Of a stretch of DNA of 24,000 nucleotides, positions 2,034-19,693 are shown in pieces; the stretch's first letter is position 1, and each line of letters starts with the position of its first letter. The position numbers and the translations under genes were made by a program. The notes beneath the pieces were generated by a model. It was not told where the DNA came from, did no database searches, and worked only from the letters and a program-made list of their open reading frames with translations. The DNA comes from an uncultured Actinomycetota bacterium (GTDB taxonomy: Bacteria; Actinomycetota; Actinomycetes; Mycobacteriales; Nakamurellaceae), in the NCBI GenBank assembly GCA_963695045.1, contig CAVOFW010000002.1, positions 1 through 24,000 of the forward strand, written 5' to 3'.

Positions 2034-2105
2034 TCGGCCTCGCGATCCGAAGGGTTCGAGGTTGGGATGATTTTCGCGTCGGCGTCGTCCTGCTGTACAT
2101 GGGCG

Positions 2106-2978
2106 TCATCTGCCTTGGTTGTCGTCGAGGCTGCCCGCCGGTGGCACAGAGAACATTGCCGGAGTTGTCGTGCTACGAATCTTTTCTGACGAGCCGATTT
2201 GGGCGGTCGCTACGCTGACCCGGTTGGTGATCGCCAACTGCCGGTTCGTCACGCCCAGCAGCGTCTTGAGTTGGTCGTGGTTCAGCTCGTCGCACACCCA
2301 GTCCCAGTGCAGGGACACCCAACTTCCGGGCCGGACCGTGCCGGCCAGCGACAAGCCGTTGGCCGCAAGTCGCGCGCGCTCGGGACGCGGTGCTCCCAAC
2401 CGGAGCTCGCTGCCGCTCCAGGTGAGCGGCCGGCATTGCACCCCGACGACCTCGCCTTCGACGGAATCGACCCGACCCCACCGGATACGGCAGCGGTCGA
2501 GCACCCGGAGCGCTGCCTCAGCGCCGGTGCGCCGCAGCACCCCGATCCACGGGTAGATGGTGAAAACATGAAAGCTGTGGTTCGCCAACGGCTCCGGTCC
2601 GGACCCTGAGGTCAGCGCCGGCCAGTCCGCGCCGAGCTGGCTGGCAAACGTCGACCGAACAGTGTTCGCGAAATGTGCTGGATCGCCGGCCCGGAGCAGG
2701 TCGTTGCCGACCCAGTAGGCCTCCACCACCCGTCGATCCATGACCGAATCCGAACCGGCAACGTCGGCCAGATACTCGAGGTAGGGCCACGCGCCGTCGA
2801 ACGCTCTGGCCCGCTCGACCATGTCCAACCCAGGTGTCGGCGCGTCGAGATCTCCTTGCTGGTGGGCGAACTCCAACAGGTCTCCGCCGTTCCCCGATCC
2901 GCAATAACCCAACTCGTTGGGCGGGTAGGCGTATCGCGCGAACATCGCCGCACCGTCGTCGGCGGGCCCCGTTGCCAT
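2106..2978 (-). CDS. Conserved hypothetical protein, last gene of the hyp/hhy operon (possibly the DUF6390 family; unverified)
   Basis: 290 aa with ATG at 2978, directly downstream of hypE. N-terminal FARYAYPPNELGYCGSG motif. The C-terminal third weakly resembles a HypC OB-fold (GSWVSLHWDWVCDELNHDQL versus Hyp[21 protein letters not shown]). It converges on the PspC gene. Confidence 0.75.
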   Translation of the reverse strand: MATGPADDGAAMFARYAYPPNELGYCGSGNGGDLLEFAHQQGDLDAPTPGLDMVERARAFDGAWPYLEYLADVAGSDSVMDRRVVEAYWVGNDLLRAGDPAHFANTVRSTFASQLGADWPALTSGSGPEPLANHSFHVFTIYPWIGVLRRTGAEAALRVLDRCRIRWGRVDSVEGEVVGVQCRPLTWSGSELRLGAPRPERARLAANGLSLAGTVRPGSWVSLHWDWVCDELNHDQLKTLLGVTNRQLAITNRVSVATAQIGSSEKIRSTTTPAMFSVPPAGSLDDNQGR

Positions 2979-3026
2979 CAGCAGATCCTGGCCATCAGCA
3001 GATCCTGGGCATCAGCAGATCCTGGG
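2976..3026 (-). repeat. 17-bp perfect-phase tandem triplication spanning the hypE stop / downstream start junction
   Basis: Plus strand: catcagcagatcctggc (2976-2992), catcagcagatcctggg (2993-3009), catcagcagatcctggg (3010-3026). Each unit on the minus strand carries TGATG, an overlapping stop and start. Confidence 0.95.
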
Positions 3027-4109
3027 CAACTGCTCGCCGATCGGCAGATCAACGACCCGGTTGCCGCCCAGCGCGGTCCGGGCCACCACCATGCCGCGAT
3101 GGTCGGCGCCACATCTCCCGATGACCACCGCCTCTTTGCCGTATTCGTGACCCTGCATGGCGGAAAGCACCTTCTCCGCGTCGCGCTCTGGGACGAACGC
3201 GATCAGCTTGCCCTCGTTGGCTACCTGCAGCGGGTCGAGGCCCAGCAGGCTGCAGGCGTTCCCGACCATCTCCGGAATCGGAAGATCCCGTTCCACCAGA
3301 TCGATCCCGACATCGGCAGCCTTGGCGATCTCGTTCAGCGATGCGGACACCCCGCCCCGGGTCGGATCGCGCAGCACATGGATGTCGGCGCCGGTGGCGA
3401 TCATCGCTTGCACGAGGCCATTCAGCGGGGCGCTGTCCGTCTCGACGGTGGTGCCGAATTCAAGTCCCTCCCGGCAGCTCATGATGGCAACACCGTGCAC
3501 GCCGATTGGACCGCTGATCATCACCACGTCCCCGACAGCCGCTCTGCTGGGCCGGATGTCGACACCGTCGTCGATGACCCCGATGCCCGCCGTATTGATG
3601 AAGACCCCGTCGCCGTGACCGCTATCCACCACCTTGGTGTCGCCGGTGACCAGCCGCACACCAGCGGCGGCGGCGGCATGGCCGATGGCGGTGGCGATCC
3701 GGTTGATCTCGGCCAGCGGGGTGCCCTCCTCCAGGATGAACGCGGTCGACAGGTACAGCGGGCGAGCGCCGGACATGGCCAGGTCGTTCACGGTTCCGTT
3801 GACCGCGAGATCTCCGATATTGCCGCCGGGGAAGAACATCGGCTTCACCACGAACGAGTCAGTGGAGAACGCCAGCCGACCGCCGGGGGTGGGCAGTACC
3901 GCCGAATCACCCAGCTCCGCCGTCGACGCGTCGCCGAAGGCCGGGAGGAACAGATGCTCGATCAGTTCGCCGGACATGGCACCGCCGCCACCGTGGCCCA
4001 TCACAATCGTGGGGGAGTCCCGGAGCGGGACCGGGCACGCCCAGGCGCTGAAATCAACAGCGTCGGCTCCGCCGGTGGTCGTTTCGGCGGTGGTCAGTTG
4101 CTCAGGCAT
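3012..4109 (-). CDS. hypE: Hydrogenase maturation protein HypE (carbamoyl dehydratase)
   Basis: 365 aa. Contains IVMGHGGGG and AIR-synthase-like repeats, and ends in the family-defining PRIC. The start overlaps the hypD stop by 8 nt. Confidence 0.95.
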
Positions 4110-5214
4110 GACTGCCCGCCGGCGTCAGTTCCAGCCTGCGGTAGAGGTAGTACGCCGCGCAGGCGCCCTCGGACGAGACCATGGTCGCACCAAGGGGATT
4201 GCGCGGGCTGCATTCCTTGCCGAAGGCAGCGCATTCGTGCGGTTTGATCAACCCCTGCAGGACCTCGCCGGAGCGGCACAAAGTCGATTCCTCAGTCAGG
4301 ATTCCCCTGACGTCGAACCGGTTCTCGGCGTCGAACTGGGCGTAGCGGCTGGACAGTTTCCAGCCGCTGCCGGGAATCATCCCGATGCCGCGCCACACCC
4401 GGTCGGTGCGTTCGAAGACATCGAGCAGCATGGCCTGCGCCGCGGTGTTTCCTTCGGTGGTGACGGCCCTGGCATAGGCGTTCTCCACGCAATAGCGGCC
4501 GGACTCGAGTTGCAGCACGGTGCGCCGGATGCCCTCGAGGATATCCAGCGGCTCGAACCCGGTGACCACGATCGGTACCTTGTACTTCGCCGCCAGCGCG
4601 GGGTACTCGGTGGTGCCCATCACGCTGCAGACATGGCCGGCCGCCAGGAATGCCTGCACCCGGCACGCCGGCGACTCCATGATCGCGGCAATCGCCGGCG
4701 GTACCAGCACATGCGAGACGAGCAGCGAGAAGTTATCGATGCCAAGCCGTTTGGCCTGATACACGGTCATCGCGTTGGCCGGTGCGGTGGTTTCGAAGCC
4801 GATGCCGAAGAACACCACCTGGCGGTCCGGGTTCTCCTTGGCGATCTTCAGCGCGTCCAGCGGCGAGTACACCACCCGCACGTCTCCGCCGGCACTCTTG
4901 ATCCGGAACAGGTCCTGGGTGGATCCAGGCACCCGCAGCATGTCGCCGAATGAACAGAAGATCACTCCTGGCTGCGCGGCGATGGCCAGCGCGCGGTCGA
5001 TGATTTCCAGCGGGGTCACGCAGACCGGGCAGCCGGGCCCGTGAATCATCTCGATCTCGTCCGGCAGTAACTGGTCGATACCGTGCCGGATGATCGAATG
5101 TGTCTGTCCGCCGCAGACCTCCATGATCGCCCACCGCCGGGTGGCTGCCGCATGGATCCGGTCGAGCAACTTGCCGGCCAGTTCCGGGTTGGAGAACTCT
5201 TCGAGGTACTTCAT
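4102..5214 (-). CDS. hypD: Hydrogenase maturation protein HypD
   Basis: 370 aa. [11 protein letters not shown] start, [21 protein letters not shown] and a C-terminal Cys-rich segment. ATGA overlap with the hypC stop at 5211-5214. Confidence 0.95.
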
Positions 5215-5567
5215 CGGGTGGCTCCGTTCATGGTCGGACTGCTCAATGCCGACGCCGGCGTCATTGGGTCGCCGCCGTTGGCCGGGGCTGGCACGCCGGC
5301 TTGTTTGGCGGCCAAGGCGAATCCGTCGCCGAATTCCTCTGCCATGATCCCGAGCCGCTCGAAGTTGGCCAGGGTGGCCAGCGCGGACTCCTCGTCTAGT
5401 CGCTGCAGCGCGAATCCGACATGCACGATGACGTAGTCACCCACGGCGGCGTCCGGGATGTATTGCAGGCAGACCTGTTTCACCACACCGCCGAAGTCGA
5501 CCTCGGACATCAGCGTTTCGTCGGCCTCGAACAGTCGCAGGATCCGACCCGGAACTGCTAGGCACAT
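5211..5567 (-). CDS. hypC: Hydrogenase maturation chaperone HypC with an unusually long Ala/Pro-rich C-terminal tail
   Basis: [10 protein letters not shown]-terminus with the essential Cys2, and [19 protein letters not shown] lies upstream of the ATG. At 118 aa it is longer than the 75-90 aa I remember as typical for HypC. Confidence 0.9.
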
Positions 5568-5595
5568 GTCGTGCTCCTTTCACCACTCGGTCACA

Positions 5596-8007
5596 TCAGC
5601 TACCCGTCACGTGCCTGGCACCGGCCATCAGTTGACCTAACGCAAGCCCGCCGTCGTTGGGCGGAACCCGTCGGTGGCGCAGCACCGTAAAGCCCTCCCG
5701 GCGTAAGCCCGGGCAAGCACCGCCGAGCAACAGTGCGTTCTGGAAGACGCCGCCGGACAAGGCCACCGTGTGCAGGCCGTGCGCTTCCCGGGCCCGGACG
5801 GCGAGCTCGATCACCAGCGCGACGGCGGCGGCGTGGAACCGGGCGCCGATCACCCCCGGCCGGACGCCAGCCAGAGCGTCGGCCGCGGCTCCGTGAATCA
5901 CCGGAGCAGGATCGGCCTGCATCGGCGTCGCGCCTGGACCAGCAGCAAGCGAGAAACGGTACGCGTCATCGGGATTGATCGTGATCGACCGGGACAGTCC
6001 CTCGAGCTCGATCGCCGCCTGCGCCTCGTATCCGGCGACCTGCCGGACGCCGGCAATGGCGGCGATCGCGTCGAAAAGCCGGCCGATACTGGAGGTCGGT
6101 ACACAGCCGAACCCGCTCGCCAACTGGGCATCCAGTACAGACCGCTCCGCTGGTGGACATCCTTTGACGCAGGCCAGCCCGGAATTCCATTCCACGCCCG
6201 CAGCTCGGAGGTGGGCAAGGGCCATCCGGTACGGCCGCTCGACGGCGGCGTCTCCGCCGGGTAGTGGGACGTAGGCCAGCTGAGCGAACCGCTCGAATCC
6301 GTTGTACGTCGTGATCAACACCTCGCCGCCCCAGACGGCGCCGTCGTCGCCGAAACCGGTTCCGTCGAAGGCGATGCCGATGACCGGTGTGCCGCCGTCA
6401 TGGCCGTGCTCGGCCATCACCGCGCAGACGTGCGCGTGGTGGTGCTGCACGGTAGAGATGTCGCGGTCCTGACGGTGCCGCCTGGCCCAGTCGGCGGAGT
6501 GGTAGCCGGGGTGTCGATCGCTGACCAGCACAGTGGGTGCCACTCCGGTCAGCATGGCCAGCTGTGCGGCGGTGTGCTCGAGGGTTTTCACCGAGCGAAG
6601 GTCGTCCATGTCGCCGATGTGCTGACTGAGCCACGCGTACCGGCCGTCGCCGATGCAGCAGGTGTTCTTCAGGTCGGCACCGACCGCCAAGGTCGGCCCG
6701 ACCTCTGCAGGAAGGGCGATCGGCAACGGGGCGTAACCGCGGGAGCGGCGGATCGGCAGCGGCTCACCGTCCACCACCCGGGAAACCGAGTCGTCGCAGG
6801 GCACGTGAATCCGCCGATCGTGCAGCAGCCAGCCATCCACCATGGGCGCCAGCAGTTCTCGGGCGTCGTCGTCGTCGGTGATGATTGGTTCACCGGACAG
6901 ATTCCCGGACGTCATCACCAGGGCGGTCGGGGATTGTGGATCACCGGGTAAGCCGAAAAGTAGGGAGTGAAGTGGGGTGTACGACAGCATGATGCCGAGG
7001 TCCGGACTGCCGGGCGCGACTGACGGTGCAATGTCGTGAATGCGGGTGAGCCCGACCGGTTCGGCTTGGCTGCAGGCCCGGCGGTCGAGCAACACGATCG
7101 GCCGGGCCGGATCGGTCAACAGTCCGGCCTCGTCGTCGCCGACCTCGGCAAACCATCGTGCGGCATCGATATCGGCGACCATGATCGCAAAGGGCTTGTC
7201 GCCTCTGCGTTTCCGTCGGCGCAGTAGGGAAACCGCTTGTTCGTTCGACGCATCACACGCGAGGTGGTAGCCGCCGAGTCCCTTGATCGCGAGAATCGCG
7301 CCCGCCATCAGGAGCCGGCGAGACTCCGCGAGTACGGCGTCGTCACCGGCCAGTGCCGCGCCATCTCGCATGATCAGTTCGAGTCGCGGGCCGCAGTCGC
7401 GGCAGGCGATCGGCTGGGCGTGAAACCGTCGATCGGTTGGGTCGGTGTACTCGGCGCGGCAAGGACCGCACATGGCGAAGTCCACCATTGTCGTGGTCGC
7501 GCGGTCGTACGGCAGGGCCGTGATGATGGTGAAACGGGGTCCGCAGTTGGTACAGCTGACAAACGGATGGCGATACCGCCGGTCGGCCGGATTTGCCATA
7601 TCGCTCAGGCATTCCCGGCACGTCGCGACGTCGGGCGAGGCCAGCGTTCGACCCGCAACGGCGCTTGCGGACTGGCCGATGTGAAATCCGGTACCTCCGA
7701 TGGCCGGCTCTTCGCTGACGCTGACCTGCTCCACGATCGCCAGCGGAGGCGGGCGCTGGGTGAGCCGGTGCACGAACGCCTCAGTGCGGGTTCGCTCGCC
7801 CTCGATGTCGATGAGCACCCCGGCGCTGTCGTTGATGACCGAGCCGGTCAAATGCAACTCGGTGGCGGTCGCGTAGACGAACGGCCGAAATCCCACGCCC
7901 TGTACCAGTCCGGATACCGCGATCCGCAGGCGAACCCGCGCCTGGCCGGGGTCCGGACGTGCGTCACCCGTCGGACCGGCCGCGTTAGCCCGGACCGCGG
8001 TGCTCAT
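5596..8007 (-). CDS. hypF: Carbamoyltransferase HypF
   Basis: 803 aa. Acylphosphatase-like VSGLVQGVGFRPFVY, and two zinc-finger pairs (CRECLSDM...CTNCGPRF and CGPCRAEY...CRDCGPRL). YrdC-like and Kae1-like regions follow. Confidence 0.95.
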   Translation of the reverse strand: MSTAVRANAAGPTGDARPDPGQARVRLRIAVSGLVQGVGFRPFVYATATELHLTGSVINDSAGVLIDIEGERTRTEAFVHRLTQRPPPLAIVEQVSVSEEPAIGGTGFHIGQSASAVAGRTLASPDVATCRECLSDMANPADRRYRHPFVSCTNCGPRFTIITALPYDRATTTMVDFAMCGPCRAEYTDPTDRRFHAQPIACRDCGPRLELIMRDGAALAGDDAVLAESRRLLMAGAILAIKGLGGYHLACDASNEQAVSLLRRRKRRGDKPFAIMVADIDAARWFAEVGDDEAGLLTDPARPIVLLDRRACSQAEPVGLTRIHDIAPSVAPGSPDLGIMLSYTPLHSLLFGLPGDPQSPTALVMTSGNLSGEPIITDDDDARELLAPMVDGWLLHDRRIHVPCDDSVSRVVDGEPLPIRRSRGYAPLPIALPAEVGPTLAVGADLKNTCCIGDGRYAWLSQHIGDMDDLRSVKTLEHTAAQLAMLTGVAPTVLVSDRHPGYHSADWARRHRQDRDISTVQHHHAHVCAVMAEHGHDGGTPVIGIAFDGTGFGDDGAVWGGEVLITTYNGFERFAQLAYVPLPGGDAAVERPYRMALAHLRAAGVEWNSGLACVKGCPPAERSVLDAQLASGFGCVPTSSIGRLFDAIAAIAGVRQVAGYEAQAAIELEGLSRSITINPDDAYRFSLAAGPGATPMQADPAPVIHGAAADALAGVRPGVIGARFHAAAVALVIELAVRAREAHGLHTVALSGGVFQNALLLGGACPGLRREGFTVLRHRRVPPNDGGLALGQLMAGARHVTGS

Positions 8008-8261
8008 GACGGAGTCAACTCGTCGGATTCACGCGACCGGCCCATCATTTCCAACCCGGACAGTGCCCTCTCGGCCGCTGCCCGGTCGACGATCTCGACC
8101 GCGAAGCCCATGTGGATCAAGACCCAGTCATCCGGCGCCACCGGGGATTCCAGCATCCCGATGTTGATCTTTCGCACCCTGCCGACGACATCGACCAAAG
8201 CGATCTGGTCCGCGTAGCCATCGACCATCGCGACGACCCGGCCGGGAATCCCGAGGCACAT
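8004..8261 (-). CDS. Second HypC/HupF-family chaperone
   Basis: 85 aa. MCLGIPGRVV N-terminus and DDWVLIHMGFAVEIVD. Its stop overlaps the hypF ATG (ATGA, 8004-8007). Confidence 0.85.
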   Translation of the reverse strand: MCLGIPGRVVAMVDGYADQIALVDVVGRVRKINIGMLESPVAPDDWVLIHMGFAVEIVDRAAAERALSGLEMMGRSRESDELTPS

Positions 8262-8263
8262 GG

Positions 8264-8869
8264 CTACCGTTCCCCCGATCCGGTAGCACCGGCCAGGCGA
8301 TCGCCGGTCCGATGCTCCGCCAGTTGGCCGTTGGTCAGAAGGTCATGGGTCAGCAGGTCATGGGTCAGCAGGTCAAGGACGGCCGCAACGGCGGGCTCCA
8401 CCGCGTCCGACACCGCGGGGGAAAGCCCGATCCCCTCTCGCACGTCGGCGCCTTCACAGCCGATCAGCACGGTCGGCGGTAACTCACCGCCCAGCGAGCC
8501 AACAGCGGCCAGAACCGAGTGCGGTGCCATGCCGTGCGGGTCAGGTGCCGCGTTATCCACTGTTGCAGGGTCGATTTCGATGATGTGCACCGCGCCCGGC
8601 CGTCCGCGGGACGGCAGCAGGTCGATCAGGAGCAGGTGATCCCAGCCGTCCAGCAGGTCGTACGCCAGGTGCATGCTGCGGATCCCGTAGTCGGTGACCG
8701 TGACGTGCGCCGGAATATCGCGGCCGGCCAAATGCCTGGCAACCTCCGAACCGAAGCCGTCGTCACCGAGAAACAGGTTGCCGACACCGGCCACCAGGAC
8801 CCGCCCCACCGGGCCGACGGTCCTGGTGGCCTGCGACGTCGCCGGCTCGGCGGATTCCGTCACGGTCAC
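8264..8869 (-). CDS. [NiFe]-hydrogenase maturation endopeptidase (HupD/HybD/HyaD family)
   Basis: VLVAGVGNLFLGDDGFG metal-ligand motif, LLLIDLL, and the His-containing PHGMAPH. The GTG start at 8869 overlaps the stop of the 39-aa ORF (GTGA). Confidence 0.85.
   Translation of the reverse strand: MTVTESAEPATSQATRTVGPVGRVLVAGVGNLFLGDDGFGSEVARHLAGRDIPAHVTVTDYGIRSMHLAYDLLDGWDHLLLIDLLPSRGRPGAVHIIEIDPATVDNAAPDPHGMAPHSVLAAVGSLGGELPPTVLIGCEGADVREGIGLSPAVSDAVEPAVAAVLDLLTHDLLTHDLLTNGQLAEHRTGDRLAGATGSGER
8330..8374 (-). repeat. In-frame 15-bp tandem repeat inside the endopeptidase gene (DLLTH-DLLTH-DLLTN)
   Basis: Plus-strand atgggtcagcaggtc occurs at 8345-8359 and 8360-8374 (identical). A diverged copy gttggtcagaaggtc lies at 8330-8344. 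Confidence 0.85.
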
Positions 8870-8985
8870 ATGTTCCGGATGCGCAGGTACCGCTGCAGGT
8901 CCGATCTGGACGAGATCAGCACGACGGCCGCGCCGACGGCGGCGGCTATCGCGGCGAGGGTGGTGAACACGCCAATGGCTCTCAT
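8866..8985 (-). CDS. 39-aa single-pass membrane peptide with a basic RYLRIRNM tail
   Basis: MRAIGVFTTLAAIAAAVGAAVVLISSRSDLQRYLRIRNM. The ATG overlaps the upstream stop (ATGA, 8982-8985) and AAGGAG sits 8 nt upstream. Its own stop overlaps the protease GTG. The remainder of the 155-aa track ORF is Arg/Pro junk overlapping the upstream gene. Confidence 0.6.
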   Translation of the reverse strand: MRAIGVFTTLAAIAAAVGAAVVLISSRSDLQRYLRIRNM

Positions 8986-10460
8986 GACTGGTTCTCCTTG
9001 CTCCGGTTGGGGTGGGCGCGGTCGGCGGCCGGGTCGGTCACGGCGGTGTCGAGCGGTTGCAGTTCTTCGGGCGCGAAGTACAGGTACCGGCCATACCACT
9101 CGTGCAGGTCGGCGGCCGGATCGTCGTCGAGGACGACGGCCACATGGGTGTTGTCGTCGACGTCCGAGTACACCGAGGTCACGCGAGCCTGCTGCCCGGC
9201 GTAGAACAAGTCTTGGGCGTCGGCGCGGCGGCTCGGCTGGAGCCGGACAATACTGCCCTTGGCCACCCGGACCCCGCTGATGATCACCGAGTCGGTCGTC
9301 GGGGAAACCGACGCATCGACGCCCGGGTCCCACCAGGGAGCATCGGGGGTGGCAAAGACCGGAATCTCCGAATCGCTGAAAGTCTCAGCATTCCAACGAT
9401 TCCCGAGCTCGTCCGGATCAGTGGCCCATTCGGCATCGGCAGCGCCGTCCCAGGCACGCGGGTCCCGCAGGGCGCCGTGCAGCCGGCCCAACGCCTCGGG
9501 CGTCATTGCTTCGCACCGGTCGATGATGGCGGCAGCGGCGGGGTCGGTAGCACGCGCGGCCGCCTTCTCCGCATCCGTCAGCGTCATTACCCGAAGCGTC
9601 AGGATCTCGTCGATCTCGGTGGAATCGAACAGCGCACCGGCACTCTCCGGGGCGACCGCCGGGTAGTCGTAGAGGATGATCGGCGAGGCGAGCACGACGT
9701 TGGTGTCGCCGGGGGCGCCGGCCAGCACGGGGTAGCAGCGCGACTGGTGGCAGCCCTTCGCCGCGGCCTCGTCTGCTGTCGATGGCTCTAACAAGGACAC
9801 GAAGGATCCCGCGTCAGCCTCGAGCAACAGGTGCGCGCCGAGGAACGAGACCGCGGTGGCCTCGTCGCGATCGCGCACCAGATCTGGGTGGGTGTTGCAC
9901 ACCGTGCAGGTCAGCCTGAGTGTCGCGGTCGGCGCCGTGCCGGTCGGTTCGGCGCGAACTGTGAAGGTTCCGCTCAATGCGCCGCGGGTACGGACCGTCC
10001 GGCCGATGGTGGATCCGGCTGCATCCGTCACGATGACGGTATCCACCGCCGACTGCACAACGACCGGTAGTTCCTGGCCGGCGAACAGCGCGGTCAGGTC
10101 AAAGGGACCGAAGGTCATTTCGCACGCCGTGGCCTCGTCGAACGACACCAGAGTTTCCTCGCCCGCCAACAGACTGTCGACCGGGCGGAAGGCGCCACCG
10201 GTTGCCTGCTCGATCTGCCGGCGCACAAGGTGCAGAAACCGCAGGGTGATCCGCACACGCGCCTGCGGCGTTGGTCGCACCAGGCACTCGCAGCGCATGA
10301 CCGGATCCTCGGCGATGCCGCTCAATGCCACCACGGGCGGCCCGAGAACGCCGAACTGCCAACGAATCTGGTTCTTCGAGGAGCGGGCCCCGTAGGGATA
10401 GAGCAGGTAACCCTCCCACAGCACGGCGTCGGCAATGGTCCGCGCCAGGTCGAGGCTCAT
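8982..10460 (-). CDS. Uncharacterised 492-aa hydrogenase-cluster protein
   Basis: I chose the ATG at 10460 (MSLDLARTIADAVLWEGYLLYPYG...) because it overlaps the upstream stop as ATGA. The 175 aa upstream in the track ORF are Arg/Pro-rich and overlap the preceding gene. No motif I can assign. Confidence 0.75.
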   Translation of the reverse strand: MSLDLARTIADAVLWEGYLLYPYGARSSKNQIRWQFGVLGPPVVALSGIAEDPVMRCECLVRPTPQARVRITLRFLHLVRRQIEQATGGAFRPVDSLLAGEETLVSFDEATACEMTFGPFDLTALFAGQELPVVVQSAVDTVIVTDAAGSTIGRTVRTRGALSGTFTVRAEPTGTAPTATLRLTCTVCNTHPDLVRDRDEATAVSFLGAHLLLEADAGSFVSLLEPSTADEAAAKGCHQSRCYPVLAGAPGDTNVVLASPIILYDYPAVAPESAGALFDSTEIDEILTLRVMTLTDAEKAAARATDPAAAAIIDRCEAMTPEALGRLHGALRDPRAWDGAADAEWATDPDELGNRWNAETFSDSEIPVFATPDAPWWDPGVDASVSPTTDSVIISGVRVAKGSIVRLQPSRRADAQDLFYAGQQARVTSVYSDVDDNTHVAVVLDDDPAADLHEWYGRYLYFAPEELQPLDTAVTDPAADRAHPNRSKENQS

Positions 10461-11104
10461 GGCGGCAACTCCGCCGAGTCCAGCCCCGCCTTCGAGAGCA
10501 TGGCAGCGAACGTCTCCTCCCAGCTGGTCTGGCCGAGGTCCGCCCGAACCCTGACCAGCGCATCCAGCGTGTCGCGGTGCAGCCGGATCCACCCGGTCTC
10601 GGGGAAATACAGATCCATCGCGTCGCGCCAGACCCCGATCGGCATCCGGTAGGTCTGGTCGGTGTCCCAGTGGATCTGTTGGATCTGAAAACCGTTGGCC
10701 CCCCGCAGGAAGGCGGTTCCGGAGAACATCAGCGAGAGGTGAATGTCGCCGTCCCGAACGGCGTGCAGGTACTTCGTGGCTGCCACCTCGAAGTCGTAGG
10801 TGAGGGCCAGCGGCAGGGTGGCCTCGGTGTCGCCGGTGAAGCCCGGGACCATGGTCGAGGTGTGCATCCACAGCAACGGGCGGAGGGTGTCGTTCCAGCG
10901 GATGCGTTCGCCGAACAGGTCCCGCAGGCCGGCGGCCTCGGTGGGGTCGTATCCGCGGCGTTGTGGGTCGATCCGCACCTGGCAACGCAAGGCGATTGCA
11001 TTCACTGGGTCGCCGGTGGTTTCGGTGATCCGGACATGAAGCGAAAGAGTCGGGGTCGCGGCGTACGGCTCGACGTCGATACCACTGACCGCGAAACCGA
11101 TCAT
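10457..11104 (-). CDS. Uncharacterised 215-aa hydrogenase-cluster protein (possibly DUF6084; unverified)
   Basis: The ATG at 11104 (MIGFAVSGIDVEPYAATPTLSLHVRITE...) overlaps the upstream stop as ATGA. The translation has a balanced, non-junk composition. Confidence 0.75.
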   Translation of the reverse strand: MIGFAVSGIDVEPYAATPTLSLHVRITETTGDPVNAIALRCQVRIDPQRRGYDPTEAAGLRDLFGERIRWNDTLRPLLWMHTSTMVPGFTGDTEATLPLALTYDFEVAATKYLHAVRDGDIHLSLMFSGTAFLRGANGFQIQQIHWDTDQTYRMPIGVWRDAMDLYFPETGWIRLHRDTLDALVRVRADLGQTSWEETFAAMLSKAGLDSAELPP

Positions 11105-11775
11105 CGGCTCGGCGCCGGTGTGGTGGTGACTTCCGGTGCGACCCGGCAGCGCTTTCGAACGGCGGCGAAGTACTCGTCGATCACTGCCCGTGCTTCGGTA
11201 CCGCCGTCGAAGCCGCGCCACACCTGACGGAGCCGCCCGATCAACTCGTAGCAGCTGTCGATCGGCACCAGATAGCACTGGTAGCCCTCGCCGGAACGCA
11301 CCGGCGCGCGGAGCAGCAGCGCTTCGATGTCTGGCAGTAACGCTCGCAGGGCGGGGTTTTCGGCCACCACCCGGTCCCAGGCGGTCAGCGGCAGGGTCGA
11401 TTCGGTGGCCCCGGCGGGTCCCGGGTAGAACGCGGAGATGCCGTCCAAGGCGGAGTTCTGAAAGACGAATACCAGCCCGACCGGAATTTCCAGGTCATCC
11501 CAATGGCCCGGTCCGAGGCGGAAGTCCGGGAAACTCAGGTACCGGTCCGGCACGGCGCGAAATTTCAGCGTTGCGCGTTCCGCCGTGAACAGCAAGTAGC
11601 ACGGTCGGCATGCGCACAGCAGGCTCCGCTGTTCGGTATTGACGACGTGCTGGTGTTTTGCATCGATCGACCCGCCGCACATCTCACAGCGGGGGCCATC
11701 CGCCGATGGTCTTCGGCTCTTGCTGATCCGCGCGATGACATCGAGCGGATTGCCACGGGGCTGGCCGGTGGTCAC
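11101..11775 (-). CDS. Uncharacterised 224-aa Cys/His-motif protein (possibly DUF5947; unverified)
   Basis: The GTG at 11775 overlaps the hhyE stop (GTGA). It contains CEMCG-x6-HQH-x10-CACRPC (nt 11599-11688), a candidate metal site. Confidence 0.75.
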   Translation of the reverse strand: MTTGQPRGNPLDVIARISKSRRPSADGPRCEMCGGSIDAKHQHVVNTEQRSLLCACRPCYLLFTAERATLKFRAVPDRYLSFPDFRLGPGHWDDLEIPVGLVFVFQNSALDGISAFYPGPAGATESTLPLTAWDRVVAENPALRALLPDIEALLLRAPVRSGEGYQCYLVPIDSCYELIGRLRQVWRGFDGGTEARAVIDEYFAAVRKRCRVAPEVTTTPAPSR

Positions 11776-12791
11776 CGCACCCCCATGGGCTGAATCTGCG
11801 ACGTAACATGTTGTGGGACAGCCACTTCGACCCGCCCGGCCCGGGCCAGCAACGGCAGTGGATCGAGGTGCAGCCCGGGTAGGTCGATTGCGGCGCCGGC
11901 CGCTCGAACGTCGTAGTGGGTGCGGCACGCCGGGCATGTCAGCACGGCGCCACCGGTACCGGCGCCGAGCCTGCGTTCCAGTCGCGCGGACGCCAGTCCG
12001 CCGCCGCAGGAGGCGCAGCTATCCCGGAAGGCCAGCAGGTCGGCACCGTTGCGACAGATGATGATCGGCAATTCACTGACGATGACGCCCCGAACTTCGG
12101 CCGGGGCAAGATCGTTGATGCCCGGGACGGTTGCCCATCCCGCAGACAGCGGCGGATCGACAGCGGGCGCGGGAGCCGTTGCGGCACCTGCGGATGCGTG
12201 CGGCACCACCGCCAACGGGAGCAGGCCGCGGCCCGGTGGCGCCACCGGCCTCGCGGTGGGGGACTGCACGTCAAATCCGGTGATTTCGGGTGCTGCTTGC
12301 GAAATGGCGTCTTCGATGGCCAACGACATGGTCGCGGCGGATGATGAGCAACCGTCGCAACTGCCGAGCAGTCGCAACCGGACGACGCCCTCGTCGGTGA
12401 TACCCAGCAATTCGACGTCACCGGCGTGCGAGCCCAGATAGGGCCGCACTGAGTCCAACGCCCGTTCCACCCGCGCCGTGACGTCCTCAGGATGCAGGTC
12501 GTGAATGAGGAGCAGACTGGCGACCAGATCGTCATCGGCCATCGCGCCGAGCACATCGTCGGTCAGTGCACCCCGCTCGTCCAGGATCTCCATCATCCGC
12601 AGCAGACCGGCGCCGTAGAGCCCAGACAGCAGGCGGATCAGTTCTTCGGCCCGTTCCCGAGCCACTGTCCCGCCGGAAGAGCTGGCCTCCAAAAGGGTCT
12701 CGAGGCGGTCGCCGACCTGACGCAGGTCAAGGTGCGGCGCGGTCTCGCCCGGAACCTCGGCAGTCGGTAATGCCGTCGACGGAACCGGCAC
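11772..12791 (-). CDS. hhyE: Putative Fe-S protein HhyE: NifU-like domain fused to a Rieske-fold-like C-terminal domain
   Basis: 339 aa. GTG 12791 is preceded by AAAGGAGG. The NifU C-terminal-type motif is LLGSCDGCSSSAATM. The C-terminal domain has CASCGG ... CPACRTH. Its position directly after hhyL matches M. smegmatis MSMEG_2718 as I recall it. Confidence 0.8.
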   Translation of the reverse strand: MPVPSTALPTAEVPGETAPHLDLRQVGDRLETLLEASSSGGTVARERAEELIRLLSGLYGAGLLRMMEILDERGALTDDVLGAMADDDLVASLLLIHDLHPEDVTARVERALDSVRPYLGSHAGDVELLGITDEGVVRLRLLGSCDGCSSSAATMSLAIEDAISQAAPEITGFDVQSPTARPVAPPGRGLLPLAVVPHASAGAATAPAPAVDPPLSAGWATVPGINDLAPAEVRGVIVSELPIIICRNGADLLAFRDSCASCGGGLASARLERRLGAGTGGAVLTCPACRTHYDVRAAGAAIDLPGLHLDPLPLLARAGRVEVAVPQHVTSQIQPMGVR

Positions 12792-12846
12792 GGTCCCTCC
12801 TTTCGCGGTCTGCGAACTGCGCTAGCGCAAGCAAAGTCCCTACCTT

Positions 12847-14640
12847 TCAGGAGGTCCCGGCGGATTGAGTTGGTGAATGCACCGTTTCGATGGTCTTTCC
12901 CTCACCGAGGTACATGTGCACTCCACAGGGCAGACACGGGTCGAAACTCCTGACCGTGCGCATGATGTCGATTCCCTTGAAATGGTCCCGGTCGTTCTCT
13001 TCGAAGATCGGCTGGCCCTGCACGGCGTCCTCGTAGGGCCCGGGGGTGCCGAAGGAGTCTCGCGGGTTGGCGTTCCAGGGCGTGGGCGGGTACGGGTGGT
13101 AGTTGGCGATCTTGCCATCCCGGATCACCATGTGATGGCTGAGCACGCCGCGCACAGCCTCGGTGAATCCGCAGCCGACGGCCTCGTCCGGCACGTCGAA
13201 AGGCTCCCAGGTCTTGGTGCGGCCCGCGCGGATCTCCACCAGGGCCTTCTCGGCAAAATGCAATGCGGCGGCCGCGGCGTAGGCCTGGAAATAGGTCCGC
13301 GCGCGGTTCCGCTCGATGGTGTTGCTCCACTGCGGGATCTTCCACTCCAGTTCGACCGGTCCCTTGAGGGCGGTCTTGGGCAGGTTGATCTTCACGCTGT
13401 GCCCGGTGGACTGCACATAGCCGATGTCAACCAGGCGGGCCAGTGCCGTCGACCACAGTCTGGCCAGCGGCCCACCACCGGTGTCCAGGGCCAGATGATC
13501 GGTGCCGTCGAACCAGCGCGGCGACATCACCCAGGAGTACTTGTCGTCCATGTTGCGCTTCTGCGGGTGCGGGTTGGTGTGCTGGTTCCATGGATGCCGT
13601 CGGTCCACCGGGTTGCCCAGCGGATCGCGCGCGACGAACATCTCCTGGCCCTCCCAGTCGTCGTAATACGAGCTGCCGAGCAGGATTCGGATGCCGAGAT
13701 TGATCTCGACAAGGTCGGTGGTGACCAGCTTGCCGTCCACGACGACGCCAGGGGTGACGAACATCGCCCGGCCCCACTTGGTCATGTCCTTGTAGGCGAA
13801 GTTGCAGACCTCCGGATCCTGGAACGAGCCCCAACAGCCCAACAGAGTGCGCCGGATGCCGACTTGCTCGTACCCGGGCAACGCTTCGTAGAAGAAGTCG
13901 AAGAGGTCGTCATGCATCGGCACGACCTTTTTCATGAATTCCACGTAGCGCGTGAGCCGGGTGATGTAGTCAGTCATCAGCTGGATGGTCGCGACCGTGC
14001 CGACGCCGCCGGGATACAGCGTGGAGGGGTGCACGTGCCGGCCCTCCATCAGGCAGAACATCTCCCTGGTCGACCGGCTGACCTGCAGAGCCTCGCGGTA
14101 GAACTCGCCGGTGAACGGGTTGAGCGACCGCATGATGTCGCCGATGGTTTTGTACCCGTGCTGGCCCCAGTGCGGCGCTTCGGTCCGGTTCGCTTTCTCC
14201 AGCACGGCCGGATTGGTCTCCGACACCATCCGCTCGCAGTAGTCGACGCCGACCAGGTTCTCCTGGAAGATGTTGTGGTCGAACATGTATTCCGCAGCTT
14301 CGCCGAGATTGACGATCCACTCGCCGAGATGCGGCGGCTTCACCCCGTAGGCCATGTTCTGCGCATAACAGGAGCAGGTGGCGTGATTGTCGCCGCAGAT
14401 ACCGCAGATTCGGCTGGTGATGAAATGCGCGTCCCGGGGGTCCTTGCCCTTCATGAAGATCGAATAGCCGCGGAAGATCGACGAGGTGCTGTGACACTCG
14501 GCGACGACCTTCTGCTTGAAGTCGATCTTGGTGTAGATGCCGAGCGACCCGACGATCCGGGTGATCGGGTCCCACGACATCTCGACCAGGTCGGCGGGAT
14601 CGGTCTCGCTGCGATGTGCTGCTGGCTTCGTGGAGGTCAT
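12847..14640 (-). CDS. hhyL: [NiFe]-hydrogenase large subunit, group 1h/5 (high-affinity, actinobacterial type)
   Basis: N-terminal metal motif TSRICGICGDNH (Cys codons at 14404-14406 and 14395-14397). C-terminal motif SFDPCLPCGVH is followed by a 22-aa cleavable tail. ATG 14640 chosen; GTG 14730 is an alternative start. Confidence 0.95.
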   Translation of the reverse strand: MTSTKPAAHRSETDPADLVEMSWDPITRIVGSLGIYTKIDFKQKVVAECHSTSSIFRGYSIFMKGKDPRDAHFITSRICGICGDNHATCSCYAQNMAYGVKPPHLGEWIVNLGEAAEYMFDHNIFQENLVGVDYCERMVSETNPAVLEKANRTEAPHWGQHGYKTIGDIMRSLNPFTGEFYREALQVSRSTREMFCLMEGRHVHPSTLYPGGVGTVATIQLMTDYITRLTRYVEFMKKVVPMHDDLFDFFYEALPGYEQVGIRRTLLGCWGSFQDPEVCNFAYKDMTKWGRAMFVTPGVVVDGKLVTTDLVEINLGIRILLGSSYYDDWEGQEMFVARDPLGNPVDRRHPWNQHTNPHPQKRNMDDKYSWVMSPRWFDGTDHLALDTGGGPLARLWSTALARLVDIGYVQSTGHSVKINLPKTALKGPVELEWKIPQWSNTIERNRARTYFQAYAAAAALHFAEKALVEIRAGRTKTWEPFDVPDEAVGCGFTEAVRGVLSHHMVIRDGKIANYHPYPPTPWNANPRDSFGTPGPYEDAVQGQPIFEENDRDHFKGIDIMRTVRSFDPCLPCGVHMYLGEGKTIETVHSPTQSAGTS

Positions 14641-14693
14641 CGTCCTGACTTTCTGCGGAGCTCCGAGGCGAACGCGTGAATACTGGGACGTGC

Positions 14694-14724
14694 CCGTCCG
14701 TGGCCCGGTGCCGGCCGCGGACGG
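14694..14724 (-). promoter_or_regulatory. GC-rich stem-loop in the hhyS-hhyL spacer
   Basis: ccgtccg (14694-14700) pairs with cggacgg (14718-14724). Inner pairs continue (14701-14707 with 14711-14717, one mismatch, one G-U) around a 3-nt loop. Confidence 0.5.
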
Positions 14725-14769
14725 CGTCACACTGGCGGCAGGCCGAGCGGCGTGACTCGCTTGCGTGAT

Positions 14770-15825
14770 TTACCAGGTCCTGGTGGCACCGGTCGTCAGG
14801 GTTCCGCCGGGGTGGCGCCACTTCGGTTCCTTGTTCAGGGTCTTCACGGTCACCTTGCGCAGGGTTCGGATTGCCGAGCCGTACAGCCCGACGGCCGTCG
14901 TCGAGAGTTTGCCGCCCGGTGGTTCGTCCATGAACGGCATGAACTTGTCGGGGAAACCGGGCATCGTGCAGCCGATGCAGATACCGCCGACGTTCGGGCA
15001 GCCACCAACACCGTTGATCCAGCCGCGTTTGGGCACATTGCATTTCACAACTGGACCCCAACAGCCCAGCTTGACGATGCACTTGTGCGACCCATACTCG
15101 ATGGCGAAATCGCCCTGCTCGTAATAGCCGGCGCGGTCGCAGCCCTCGTGCACAGTCTGGCCGAACAACCAGGTGGGGCGCAGCTCATCATCGAGCGGAA
15201 TCATCGGCGCCTGGCCGGTAGCCTGATAGAGCAGGTAGGTGATCGTCTCCGAGAGATTGTCCGGTTGCACGGGGCACCCCGGTACACAGACAATCGGAAG
15301 TCCGGCCTTGGACTTCCACTTCCAACCAAGGTAGTCCGGCACGCCCATCGCCCCGGTGGGATTGCCGGCCATCGCATGGATGCCGCCGTAGGTGGCGCAG
15401 GTACCCACTGCCAGCACGGCCAATGCCTTGGGCGCCAACCGGTCGAGCCATTCACTGGTGGTCACGGGTTGGCCGGTGGCAGGGTCGTTGCCGAACCCGG
15501 ACCAGTAGCCTTCGGCGTGCAGCTTCTCGTTGGGAATCGAGCCCTCGACCACGAGGACGAATGGTTCCAGTTCGCCACGATCGGCCTTCCAGAACCATTC
15601 CAGGAAGTCGTCCGCACCACCTGCCGGACCGCATTCGAAGTCGATGAGCGGCCAGTGCACGGCGATATTGGGTAGGCCGGGCAGGGCGCCGAGCGCGATT
15701 TCCTCGATGCTCGGCTGGGTCGCGGCGGTGAGCGCGACGGAGTCGCCGTCACAACTCAATCCCGCATTGATCCACAGGACGTGGATCAATGTCTCCTCGG
15801 CGCGTTTCGCTTCTTCTGTGAGCAT
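14770..15825 (-). CDS. hhyS: [NiFe]-hydrogenase small subunit, group 1h/5, no Tat leader
   Basis: 351 aa. LWINAGLSCDGDS has Asp where the canonical CxGC has its second Cys. Also GTCATYGG, CVPGCP and CIGCTMPGFPD. The N-terminus lacks an RRxF twin-arginine motif. Confidence 0.95.
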   Translation of the reverse strand: MLTEEAKRAEETLIHVLWINAGLSCDGDSVALTAATQPSIEEIALGALPGLPNIAVHWPLIDFECGPAGGADDFLEWFWKADRGELEPFVLVVEGSIPNEKLHAEGYWSGFGNDPATGQPVTTSEWLDRLAPKALAVLAVGTCATYGGIHAMAGNPTGAMGVPDYLGWKWKSKAGLPIVCVPGCPVQPDNLSETITYLLYQATGQAPMIPLDDELRPTWLFGQTVHEGCDRAGYYEQGDFAIEYGSHKCIVKLGCWGPVVKCNVPKRGWINGVGGCPNVGGICIGCTMPGFPDKFMPFMDEPPGGKLSTTAVGLYGSAIRTLRKVTVKTLNKEPKWRHPGGTLTTGATRTW

Positions 15826-15843
15826 GCATCACCCCGGTGCGTC

Positions 15844-15863
15844 GGGTCTGCGGCGGGAGACCC
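15844..15863 (-). promoter_or_regulatory. Hairpin in the hypB-hhyS spacer
   Basis: gggtct (15844-15849) pairs with agaccc (15858-15863) around an 8-nt loop. It sits in the 88-bp gap, about 20 nt upstream of the hhyS start. Confidence 0.45.
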
Positions 15864-15913
15864 AATCACGTCGTCGTTGCCGGCAGAGTCGGCGTGTGCG
15901 GCGCATCACATTC

Positions 15914-16789
15914 CTAAACCCGGCTGTGAACCCTGTCAAGGTGATCGTCGGTGAGCGCGCTCCTGTCAAGCGTGCGTGTCAGCCATTCGATCCAATGAGT
16001 GAGGCCGTCATCCGCCGTGGCGGTAACTTTCACTATCTCGGTGCGCCCATTCAGGCGATGCACGTCTGCGCTGAAACGGTGAATATCGAAGTCCAGGTAC
16101 GGCAGCAGATCCATTTTGTTGATCAGCACCAGATCTGCTGCGGCGAACATGTGCGGGTACTTCAGAGGCTTGTCCGAGCCTTCGGTGACCGAGGCCAAGA
16201 CCACCCGGGTGGCCTCGCCAAGATCGAAAAGCGCAGGACATACCAGGTTTCCGACATTCTCGATGAACAACAACGTGCCGCGTTGTGGGTCGAGTGCCAG
16301 CAATGCGCTCATGATCATGTCAGCGTCCAAGTGGCACCCGGCCCCGGTGTTGATCTGCACGACAGGACACCCCGCCGTGCGGATCCGCTCCCCGTCGAGC
16401 GGAGTTTCCTGGTCACCTTCGATGACGGCAATGGGTATATCGCGACCGACATTGGCAATGGTCTTTTCAAGCAGGGTCGTCTTGCCCGAACCGGGCGAGC
16501 TCATCAGATTGATCGCGAAAACTCCCCGGTCCGCGAGCCATTGGCGGTTGTTTTTGGCGAGTGAGGCATTCTTTGCCAAGATCCGTTGTTCCAGTACAAC
16601 GGTGCGGTCTGCGCCGGCAGCCGCCTGGTGCTCATGCCGATGGCCAGGTTCGGGGTCGGGGTGCTGGTGATGTTCATTCTCATGTCGTGGTTGGCCGTCA
16701 TGGTGATGGCCGTGTTCGGCCACCGCTGGGTCGGACAGCATGGTCACCCGCGTTCCGGCTTCGTCGCCACAGCCGCATGTTGCGCACAT
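15914..16789 (-). CDS. hypB: Nickel-inserting GTPase HypB with a His-rich N-terminal region
   Basis: MCATCGCG (CxxCGC) start, His-rich stretch HGHHHDGQPRHENEHHQHPDPEPGHRHEH, P-loop GSPGSGKT, and ENVGNLVCP. Confidence 0.95.
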   Translation of the reverse strand: MCATCGCGDEAGTRVTMLSDPAVAEHGHHHDGQPRHENEHHQHPDPEPGHRHEHQAAAGADRTVVLEQRILAKNASLAKNNRQWLADRGVFAINLMSSPGSGKTTLLEKTIANVGRDIPIAVIEGDQETPLDGERIRTAGCPVVQINTGAGCHLDADMIMSALLALDPQRGTLLFIENVGNLVCPALFDLGEATRVVLASVTEGSDKPLKYPHMFAAADLVLINKMDLLPYLDFDIHRFSADVHRLNGRTEIVKVTATADDGLTHWIEWLTRTLDRSALTDDHLDRVHSRV

Positions 16790-16790
16790 T

Positions 16791-17120
16791 TCAGGCCACC
16801 TTTACAGATCGGATCAGCATTTCCTGGCCGCTGATGACACTCACGTCCGCACTTCCGCACTGGCAGAGCAGGACTGGGTGCTGCAGGACGAAATCGCGGC
16901 CACAGGACCTGCAACTCGCCCGTCCCTCCGGCTCGTCGATTTCCAGAATGGCGCCGTCCATCGTGGTGTCAGCGGTGGCCAGTTCGAAGCAGAACCGGAG
17001 CGCGTCCGGGACCACGCCGCTCAGCTTGCCGATGGTCAGATGAATTGCGCTGATACGGGTGTCGCCGAGCCGTTCGGTAACCTGCTCGACCACACCTTGG
17101 ATGACCGCCAACTCATGCAC
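16791..17120 (-). CDS. hypA: Nickel metallochaperone HypA
   Basis: GTG 17120 (VHELAVIQGVVEQV, i.e. the MHE start motif) has GAGGGAG upstream. Zinc motif CRSCG ... CQCG; the second pair is CxC rather than CxxC. Its stop lies 1 nt before the hypB ATG. Confidence 0.85.
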   Translation of the reverse strand: MHELAVIQGVVEQVTERLGDTRISAIHLTIGKLSGVVPDALRFCFELATADTTMDGAILEIDEPEGRASCRSCGRDFVLQHPVLLCQCGSADVSVISGQEMLIRSVKVA

Positions 17121-17154
17121 CAAGCGGCTCCCTCGTCGGAGTTGCGCACGCCGA

Positions 17155-17499: not shown

Positions 17500-17608
17500 A
17501 AGAAAGGTCGTTCAATGATGTGTGGTCAAGATCGTGGCGGCGCGCGTTCCGTGCTGTCGGCGGCGCTCGGCGATCGGTCTGATCGCAAATGGAACTACCA
17601 ACGAGTGA

Positions 17609-19408: not shown

Positions 19409-19693
19409 CGCCCGAGACTAAGCCCGGACCAGCCGAAACGACACGGAGCAATTTGCTCAAGCGAACAGAAGAACGACTAGCAAGAACAACGCCTACAACA
19501 CGGCGATGACGAGCACCCGCCCACGCGACGTCCCCGCGTGCTTTAAGGCAACCCGACAGGCGACGCTCCGGTGAGCGCATGTTCAGGCCCGAGCCCAGCC
19601 GCCGATCGCGAAGCATTTCGGTGTCTGGGTCGGCCTTGCCACCCGGCGCGGGAACCGGGTCGTCAAGAAGGCGAAATACACGGTCGCGCAGCG

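Follow-up and report, generated by a model that had tools for sequence, protein, structure and literature searches.

The window analysed here, a stretch of 24,000 nucleotides (nt) from an uncultured Actinomycetota bacterium of the Nakamurellaceae (contig CAVOFW010000002.1, positions 1 to 24,000), carries the gene cluster of a group 1h [NiFe] hydrogenase (Hhy), and the present work concerns a block of four uncharacterised open reading frames (ORFs) that lie in this cluster between hhyE and the gene of the maturation endopeptidase. Direct reading of the minus strand showed that hhyE, the four ORFs and the HycI-type endopeptidase gene are joined by five stop/start overlaps of 4 nt, at the very coordinates given in an earlier note on this DNA, and the junctions yield the sizes of 224, 215, 492 and 39 amino acids (aa) that had been assigned to the four products. 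The genes, their junctions and the main protein segments are the following.

11772..12791, minus strand: hhyE, NifU-like domain at residues 108-171, first gene of the overlap relay
11775-11772, minus strand: GTGA, hhyE stop and ORF224 start
11101..11775, minus strand: ORF224, Pfam DUF5947 (PF19372), orthologue of Cupriavidus necator PHG067
11599..11688, minus strand: Cys/His motif, ORF224 codons 30-59, C30xxC33-x7-H41xH43-x10-C54xC56xxC59
11104-11101, minus strand: ATGA, ORF224/ORF215 junction
10457..11104, minus strand: ORF215, Pfam DUF6084 (PF19562), orthologue of PHG068
10460-10457, minus strand: ATGA, ORF215/ORF492 junction
8982..10460, minus strand: ORF492, member of a large unnamed family, orthologue of PHG069
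9681..10313, minus strand: all-beta, sandwich-like core of ORF492, residues ~50-260, with long strands
9465..9692, minus strand: acidic helical segment of ORF492, residues ~257-332
9051..9308, minus strand: C-terminal SH3-like small beta-barrel of ORF492, residues ~385-470, from Foldseek
8985-8982, minus strand: ATGA, ORF492/ORF39 junction
8866..8985, minus strand: ORF39, Pfam DUF6893 (PF21833)
8869-8866, minus strand: GTGA, ORF39 stop and endopeptidase start
8264..8869, minus strand: HycI/HupD-type maturation endopeptidase, last gene of the relay

Open frames run further upstream of the chosen starts, which were placed at the overlaps because the N-termini of homologues align with the window proteins. 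Since overlaps are also found among the downstream hyp genes (hypC/hypF 4 nt, hypC2/hypD 4 nt and hypD/hypE 8 nt, in longest-ORF coordinates), overlap is a trait of the whole operon and not of the block alone, and coupling by itself therefore cannot show a stoichiometric complex. A scan of positions 2000-17500 for promoters and terminators gave no signal exceeding the shuffled background and hence no sign of internal transcription units.

ORF224 matches DUF5947 over nearly the entire model (237.1 bits, cut-off 25, model positions 1-176 of 177) and is 41.7% identical to PHG067, with the Cys/His region in its N-terminal part and an alpha/beta domain in its C-terminal part. The CxxC-x7-HxH-x10-CxCxxC pattern described earlier for the 224-aa protein is present at residues 30-59 and is conserved in homologues: in the DUF5947 alignments (41-44 homologues, C. 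necator included) C33, H41, H43, C54, C56 and C59 are invariant and C30 is near-invariant, and the family has two CxxC-type knuckles, CEMCG and CRPCY. This Cys5His2 motif is a putative metal site, whose spacing matches none of the ferredoxin, Rieske and rubredoxin models; a Pfam match of DUF7576 to a CxxC knuckle (E<=5) was not usable. In the AlphaFold2 (AF2) model of DUF5947 the predicted local distance difference test (pLDDT) score is 79 overall and 56-67 in the Cys/His region, the alpha/beta domain being modelled with confidence, and comparison with the folds in the PDB gave a best E of 0.045, that is, no recognisable solved fold. The deposited gene call for ORF224 (P0394) has 193 aa and starts at Met32, thereby dropping Cys30, and because this would remove a near-invariant residue the 224-aa form is preferred.

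Likewise, ORF215 covers almost all of the DUF6084 model (288.9 bits, cut-off 25, model positions 5-209 of 213), and the conserved columns of this family (81 sequences) are rich in Trp, Phe and Arg and show no family-wide Cys or His cluster. ORF492 found no family match by sequence in Pfam, NCBIfam or the PDB, and is 33% identical to PHG069, which occupies the same position between DUF6084 and the protease (tblastn, 94% of the query, E 1e-48). Its nearest relatives come from Nakamurella-like and other Actinomycetota metagenome-assembled genomes (MAGs), and it has at least 7,958 relatives, all of them unnamed; 3,664 clusters (50% identity) reach E<=1e-3. The AF2 model (pLDDT 73) comprises an N-terminal part with a conserved helix and an EGYLLYPY...KN..RW motif, the beta-sandwich-like core (pLDDT mostly 80-97), the acidic helical segment (pLDDT 41-71), a variable disordered linker and the C-terminal SH3-like barrel, which in other lineages is directly followed by the protease domain. 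The acidic segment, which reads SPIILYDYP..A.ES.G.LFDSTEIDEILTLR..TLTD.EK..ARATDP, is the most conserved part of the protein, with P260, D265, P267, S273, D279, E282, D284, E285 and D306 conserved family-wide; since high conservation together with low model confidence is the typical pattern of such elements, we infer that it binds a partner. No Cys is conserved across 129 diverse members of the ORF492 family, and the family alignments of ORF215 and ORF492 contain no family-wide Cys or His cluster, in agreement with the earlier view that the 215- and 492-aa products lack a metal-binding motif. By Foldseek the C-terminal barrel resembles PetP, a peripheral subunit of the cyanobacterial cytochrome b6f complex with an SH3 fold (7r0w_V, probability 1.00, TM-score 0.75; 2n5u, TM-score 0.66), but the likeness is one of fold only (16-23% identity, E 0.04-0.05), and SH3-like barrels being ubiquitous, no function is deduced from it. 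Three other candidates for ORF492 were rejected: DrmA of the DISARM system, the top PDB match of the model (E 9e-5), is uninterpretable (TM-scores 0.25/0.11, root-mean-square deviation 22 Å), concanavalin-like Foldseek matches to the core are too weak (probability <=0.16), and a Phage_TAC_7 match to the acidic helices (E 2e-4) is below cut-off and probably compositional.

The smallest product, ORF39, matches DUF6893 (44.1 bits, cut-off 24.6), and the single transmembrane (TM) helix proposed for it is borne out by one hydrophobic helix (19-residue Kyte-Doolittle mean 2.47), which is followed by a basic C-terminal tail. This tail, ...PD..RYLK.R.M, ends at the stop codon and contains the invariant residues D29, R32, Y33 and M39, and an AAGGAG sequence lies at 8999-8994, 8 nt upstream of the ATG. 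A mini-ORF of this type, with the consensus M..vG-(TM)-GvRSiPDi.RYLKmR.M and mostly exactly 39 aa long, occurs between ORF492 and the protease in all 78 loci (78/78) that have both neighbours, and it adjoins the protease in every examined locus where it was found. It stands upstream of the protease in these 78 actinobacterial loci and downstream of it in C. necator, Methylocystis and the loci L086, L090 and L091. In the first two of these, the DUF6893-like mini-ORFs after the protease are unannotated (...LLANIKDIRRYIRIRSM and ...FNFRDIVRYIKITMM, respectively), and the PLSDB gene table may be incomplete:

~11002-11100, plus strand, C. necator pHG1 (L081): DUF6893-type mini-ORF, absent from the gene table
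~10747-10845, plus strand, Methylocystis parvus pMpar-2 (L082): DUF6893-type mini-ORF, absent from the gene table

Three further loci deserve mention with respect to this mini-gene. A Mycobacterium intracellulare plasmid (L093) has a 127-nt gap without annotation at its position (8327-8452), and L090 carries two tandem DUF6893 mini-genes of 34 and 39 aa (3112-3335) after a fused ORF492-HycI gene. In L070, a MAG labelled Candidatus Sericytochromatia, both the locus and the mini-protein look mycobacterial in type, which suggests mis-binning or recent horizontal transfer.

The searches for known accessory factors were consistently negative. None of the four ORFs matched the HypA, cobW/HypB, HupF_HypC, HypD, AIRS/HypE or HypF models at E<=0.01, unlike the neighbouring hyp genes, which do match, and at the same threshold the four full proteins matched none of the HoxL/O/Q/R/T/V, HyaE, HyaF/HupH, HybE, rubredoxin and HupK models. 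The sub-domains of ORF492, the halves of DUF5947 and DUF6084 had no match at E<=5 among the Pfam accessory, rubredoxin, thioredoxin-like and iron-sulphur (Fe-S) scaffold families, no NCBIfam model was matched by any of the four ORFs, and a sequence search of all PDB chains with the three larger ORFs returned nothing or chance-level matches (E 0.3-0.7). Comparison of ORF224, ORF215, ORF492, HhyE and HycI with one another by hhalign revealed no internal homology (probabilities <=1.8%). The observation in the earlier note that none of the four ORFs carries a Hyp/Hup motif is consequently upheld at the level of Pfam and NCBIfam, where no Hyp, Hup or Hox accessory family was found; the hidden Markov model (HMM) searches led only to DUF5947, DUF6084 and DUF6893, all uncharacterised, and ORF492 has no model in either database.

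The block is bounded by genes of the enzyme itself and of its maturation, and the enzyme genes on the upstream side are as follows.

14770-15825, minus strand: hhyS, Pfam Oxidored_q6 and NiFe_hyd_SSU_C, small subunit of the group 1h [NiFe] hydrogenase
12847-14730, minus strand: hhyL, Pfam NiFeSe_Hases, large subunit of the group 1h [NiFe] hydrogenase
12850..12915, minus strand: 22-residue C-terminal extension of HhyL past DPCLPCGVH, from translation

HhyL shares 75-88% identity with the large subunits of C. necator and other group 1h-type clusters. In [NiFe] large subunits cleavage occurs after the DPCxxCxxH motif, and the C-terminal extension of HhyL is presumably what the endopeptidase (Pfam HycI; TIGR00072, E 3.3e-32) acts on. 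HhyE has a clear NifU domain (Pfam E 1.6e-19) and a C-terminal half (11775-12299, minus strand) with a sub-threshold Rieske match (E 0.003), in which CxxC...CPxC is present and the His ligands are absent. Moreover, the NifU CxxC is lost in the HhyE-like proteins of two distant lineages (L084, 7465-8001; L087, 3035-3550), and this loss, together with the missing Rieske His ligands, sits uneasily with HhyE as a pure Fe-S electron carrier. The protease of the window is longer than its homologues (201 aa versus ~150-180 aa), and its C-terminal extension holds a short in-frame tandem repeat coding LLTHD-LLTHD-LLTN (~8340-8400, minus strand).

Relatives of ORF492 were found in more than 580 genomes, of which the best 80 loci, all of actinobacterial type, were examined. 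Wherever the flank reaches, these have the order hypB, hhyS, hhyL, hhyE, DUF5947, DUF6084, ORF492, protease, hypC, and the 4-nt overlaps recur in related loci at the junctions hhyE/DUF5947 (44 loci), DUF5947/DUF6084 (62) and DUF6084/ORF492 (75). The core order is shared by the cluster on C. necator pHG1 (PHG064-070), known as an 'actinobacterial-type' group 5/1h hydrogenase cluster, and by the Methylocystis parvus plasmid, with 4-nt overlaps at most junctions in the former and at one in the latter. PHG066-PHG070 correspond to the window in encoding a NifU-like protein, DUF5947, DUF6084, an ORF492 homologue and the protease, mostly with overlapping junctions, and the C. necator proteins are 33-42% identical to those of the window and have the same Cys/His motif. 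They differ in that PHG066 has no counterpart to the Rieske-like half of HhyE and that the mini-ORF follows the protease in C. necator, as in Methylocystis, instead of preceding it; the Methylocystis ORF492 homologue is without the long disordered linker. The fixed order claimed earlier thus holds in the 80 loci but has limits elsewhere: some lineages lack DUF6084, as in L084 and L089, where ORF492 comes after DUF5947 without it, and the mini-ORF changes sides outside the actinobacterial group. Co-occurrence with hhyL is similarly qualified: the block and hhyL are adjacent wherever the flank reaches in the 80 loci, but in L084/L085 hhySL is absent within 8 kb.

Four kinds of natural fusion were found among the relatives of ORF492.

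ORF492 with HycI: P0199, P0145, P0180, P0195 and P0174 by hmmscan; P0205 by motif and precomputed Pfam
DUF6084 with ORF492: P0231
DUF5947 with ORF492: P0242
N-terminal part of HhyE with DUF5947: 375-aa protein of L086/L087; HhyL of this cluster shares 88% identity with that of the window

The ORF492-HycI fusion occurs in seven separate clusters at 50% identity, with Pfam confirmation in six, and at least five of its lineages are clear. In P0199, P0145, P0174, P0195 and P0205 (~4 aa) the linkers are short and leave no room for another gene, while that of P0180 is longer. A further protein, P0149 (L083), could not be retained as a clean ORF492-HycI fusion, because a conserved DUF6893 mini-ORF in another frame spans its linker, and the claim of a fusion therefore rests on the five proteins with short linkers; the DUF6893-like mini-ORF inside the linker of L083 (2423-2545) may represent an overlapping gene or else a frameshift artefact of the metagenome contig. 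In the lineages with a fused ORF492-HycI gene the DUF6893 gene directly follows it. Jointly the fusions connect HhyE, DUF5947, DUF6084, ORF492 and the protease, and at the level of sequence they support a physical association of the block proteins. The earlier idea of a physical complex gains independent support from these four kinds of fusion, while the coupling argument on which it had been built is weak, given that the hyp genes overlap equally. Rearranged loci point in the same direction: in L084/L085 an HhyE-like gene is followed by DUF5947-ORF492 and then by HycI, hydrogenase genes being absent within 8 kb, and in L089 and the P0205 locus ORF492-HycI sits among hypA, hypC, hypD and hypE, upstream of hhyS. 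On rearrangement, it is the protease and the hyp genes that the block accompanies, not hhySL.

A comparable division was seen in the rates of divergence, measured as mean identity to the window proteins across the 80 loci.

Structural subunits: HhyS 87%, HhyL 86.5%
Block: DUF5947 56%, DUF6084 51%, ORF492 52%
HhyE: 48%
Maturation genes: HycI 52%, HypB 53%, HypF 56%

These values are suggestive of a block that diverges like the maturation machinery and unlike the enzyme subunits.

In view of these observations the reading that we favour, at a probability of about one half, is that the products of the four ORFs join HhyE and the endopeptidase in a dedicated accessory complex that builds the group 1h hydrogenase, possibly at the membrane. 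Assembly and maturation are favoured because the block is fused to and co-migrates with the protease and because it diverges in the manner of maturation factors; the cleavable C-terminal extension of HhyL, being the presumed protease substrate, counts as further support. From these sequence relationships we infer the physical complex, precursor HhyL (pre-HhyL) as its client, a role of the metal site and tethering to the membrane. ORF492 would act as the hub, its beta-sandwich and acidic segment holding the immature subunit, most likely pre-HhyL with the 22-residue extension, and its SH3-like domain would bring the HycI-type protease into place for the last cleavage step. DUF5947 might bridge the NifU-like HhyE and ORF492, with the Cys5His2 site serving either as structural Zn or for Ni or Fe-S hand-over, DUF6084 could be a dispensable adaptor, and the DUF6893 peptide would tether the assembly of protease and ORF492, or else the enzyme once completed, to the membrane on its cytoplasmic side. 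In C. necator the enzyme of group 1h was reportedly purified and crystallised, in the work of Schafer from 2013 and 2016, as small and large subunits only, which fits with PHG067-069 not being permanent subunits. Of the three roles proposed in the earlier note, namely assembly scaffold, O2-protection factor and docking module, the evidence leans to assembly and maturation, and docking is kept alive by the 39-aa membrane peptide.

Several points nevertheless weigh against a role in maturation. What the fusions show is that the proteins are associated, functionally or physically, and not the process in which they serve; the argument from divergence rates is no more than suggestive, and none of the four proteins resembles a known maturation factor in the Pfam and NCBIfam searches. 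An Fe-S redox centre, too, would be compatible with the invariant Cys5His2 motif. H2 oxidation requires HhyE, and on native gels this protein runs together with HhyS and HhyL, a behaviour that was read by the authors as electron transfer (PMC6883350). In Methylacidiphilum, hhyS, hhyL and hupD are consecutive and hhyE is absent (PMC5364354, PMC6688271); by published gene order, the group 1h clusters of this genus appear to lack the block, and maturation of a group 1h enzyme may consequently be possible without it.

Some of these points recur in the main rival proposal, in which the block proteins would be permanent partners of the mature enzyme: HhyE and the metal centre of DUF5947 would relay electrons of HhyS to menaquinone, with DUF6893 as the missing membrane anchor and ORF492 and DUF6084 as scaffold. 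We consider this possible, if doubtful. It would account for the invariance of the Cys5His2 motif, for the requirement of HhyE in H2 oxidation and for an earlier suggestion that PHG067/MSMEG_2717 might be an electron acceptor (PMC6883350), as well as for the finding that Hhy occurs only in membrane fractions and withstands 5% cholate with no known transmembrane subunit (10.1101/769216), given that the single-pass DUF6893 peptide is present in every examined locus where it was searchable. However, permanent partners would not be expected to be fused repeatedly to a transiently acting maturation protease, as ORF492 is, to part from hhySL together with this protease and the hyp genes, or to diverge far faster than HhyS and HhyL; furthermore, ORF492 and DUF6084 have no cofactor motif, and the HhyE-like proteins of L084 and L087 are without the NifU CxxC. 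C. necator, too, keeps all four genes although its enzyme is said to be active as a two-subunit soluble protein. The maturation and permanent-partner readings can be combined, and an improbable version of this would make DUF6893 the long-sought membrane anchor of Hhy, a platform with ORF492, DUF6084, DUF5947 and HhyE finishing the enzyme by protease cleavage at the membrane and then staying on as the menaquinone route. If this were true, one module would couple maturation, localisation and respiratory wiring, and the folds of the platform would be previously undescribed.

A mixed role, or one in protection from O2, is rather unlikely for the block. Under this proposal it would stabilise or repair the Fe-S clusters of HhyS, by way of NifU-like HhyE and DUF5947, during aerobic biosynthesis, in a logic analogous to that of the rubredoxin-type HoxR/HupI factors, with ORF492 and DUF6084 as holding chaperones. 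To our knowledge the hosts are all aerobes that make the enzyme in air, and the NifU domain of HhyE, the existence of an HhyE-DUF5947 fusion and the CEMCG and CRPCY knuckles would suit such a function, but the four ORFs contain no rubredoxin, thioredoxin-like or Fe-S scaffold family even at E<=5, some HhyE-like partners have lost their NifU cysteines, and the strongest fusion signal involves the large-subunit protease, not a small-subunit factor. Finally, the ORFs might have no common function and be unrelated passengers or partly spurious frames in an operon compacted as is ordinary in a high-GC genome: the 4-nt overlaps also join the downstream hyp genes, and long spurious ORFs are common at the 66% GC of this DNA. 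We give this next to no credence and in our judgement it is already refuted by the conservation and fusion data, since each of the four ORFs has thousands of homologues or a curated Pfam model, 80 loci and two proteobacterial plasmids share one and the same order, fusions of four kinds exist, and the length of 39 aa is fixed in most of 78 loci.

The favoured role in assembly has a precedent in the membrane-bound (group 1d) hydrogenases, which have an enzyme-specific set, HoxL/O/Q/R/T/V (HyaE, HyaF and HupG-K), beside the protease HoxM, and in which the HoxLOQRTV-type block is required for aerobic assembly. Like the block of the window, this set consists of small enzyme-specific genes between the structural and the hyp genes, beside a dedicated protease, and we take the block to work like it in logic, not in sequence, as the HupF_HypC, HyaE, HupH_C, HybE, rubredoxin and large-subunit-like models are all unmatched. 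As we know of no Tat (twin-arginine translocation) signal peptide in group 1h small subunits, the Tat-proofreading role of HoxO/HoxQ cannot apply. A second comparison is offered by HucM, third subunit and membrane-associated stalk of the mycobacterial group 2a hydrogenase Huc, an oxidiser of atmospheric H2, to which it delivers menaquinone (PMC10017518). HucM is likewise non-catalytic and encoded behind the structural genes, and it explains membrane association without a classical cytochrome b subunit (PMC10017518). It is a stoichiometric subunit of purified Huc; the block proteins match no PDB chain at E<=1 beyond chance.

That group 1h loci carry conserved hypothetical genes had been pointed out before, and the ORFs of the window belong to these, being orthologous to PHG067-069 and to such genes elsewhere; the Mycobacterium smegmatis counterparts are the genes downstream of hhyE (MSMEG_2718), starting with MSMEG_2717. 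The accompanying remark that their roles had not been worked out is also in line with the literature up to 2026, in which they are still 'hypothetical' (PMC6883350, PMC13332983, 10.1101/457697). A comparative paper of 2026 lists them as such (PMC13332983), and in Thermomicrobium the 'conserved hypotheticals' hhaABC are upregulated together with hhySL under carbon limitation (10.1101/457697). The genes are accordingly known as conserved unknowns, and the window adds an orthologous set, not a new entity; what appears to be new is the chain of fusions and the adjacency of mini-protein and protease, neither of which is mentioned in searchable papers. The four genes are the only conserved components of the cluster that lack an explanation. 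Group 1h hydrogenases form a major part of the biological sink of atmospheric H2 and aid soil Actinobacteria, mycobacteria among them, in dormancy and survival, and the block bears on the assembly of these enzymes in air, their firm binding to the membrane and the route of electrons to the quinone pool. These genes are probably required if O2-insensitive, high-affinity hydrogenases are to be produced heterologously for biocatalysis or 'energy from air' devices.

The remaining genes of the cluster offer some additional observations. Pfam identifies two hypC genes, hypA and hypB among the neighbours, and the ORFs at the hypF, hypD and hypE positions were named by homology to annotated genes. The two HypC/HupF paralogues lie at 8004-8261 (minus strand), right after the protease, and at 5211-5567 (minus strand), before the ORF at the hypD position, and they may be separate chaperones for different steps or clients. 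HypB (15914-16789, minus strand) combines a CxxCGC motif (MCATCGCG) near its N-terminus with a long stretch rich in His, HGHHHDGQPRHENEHHQHPDPEPGHRHEH, as is typical of Ni-storing HypB. Directly downstream of the ORF at the hypE position a DUF6390 protein is encoded (2106-2978, minus strand; E 4.8e-85), which is a further conserved uncharacterised member of the same hydrogenase cluster. On the M. intracellulare plasmid L093 (437 kb), a nuoA-G operon (9923-15296) directly follows the hhy cluster. In the distal part of the window (17800-24000) long ORFs without a Pfam match are present at 17808-18335, 18750-19616 and 20593-22119 on the minus strand and at 22122-22778 and 23208-23702 on the plus strand, and that at 20593-22119 overlaps an opposite-strand ORF at 20866-22683 (plus strand).

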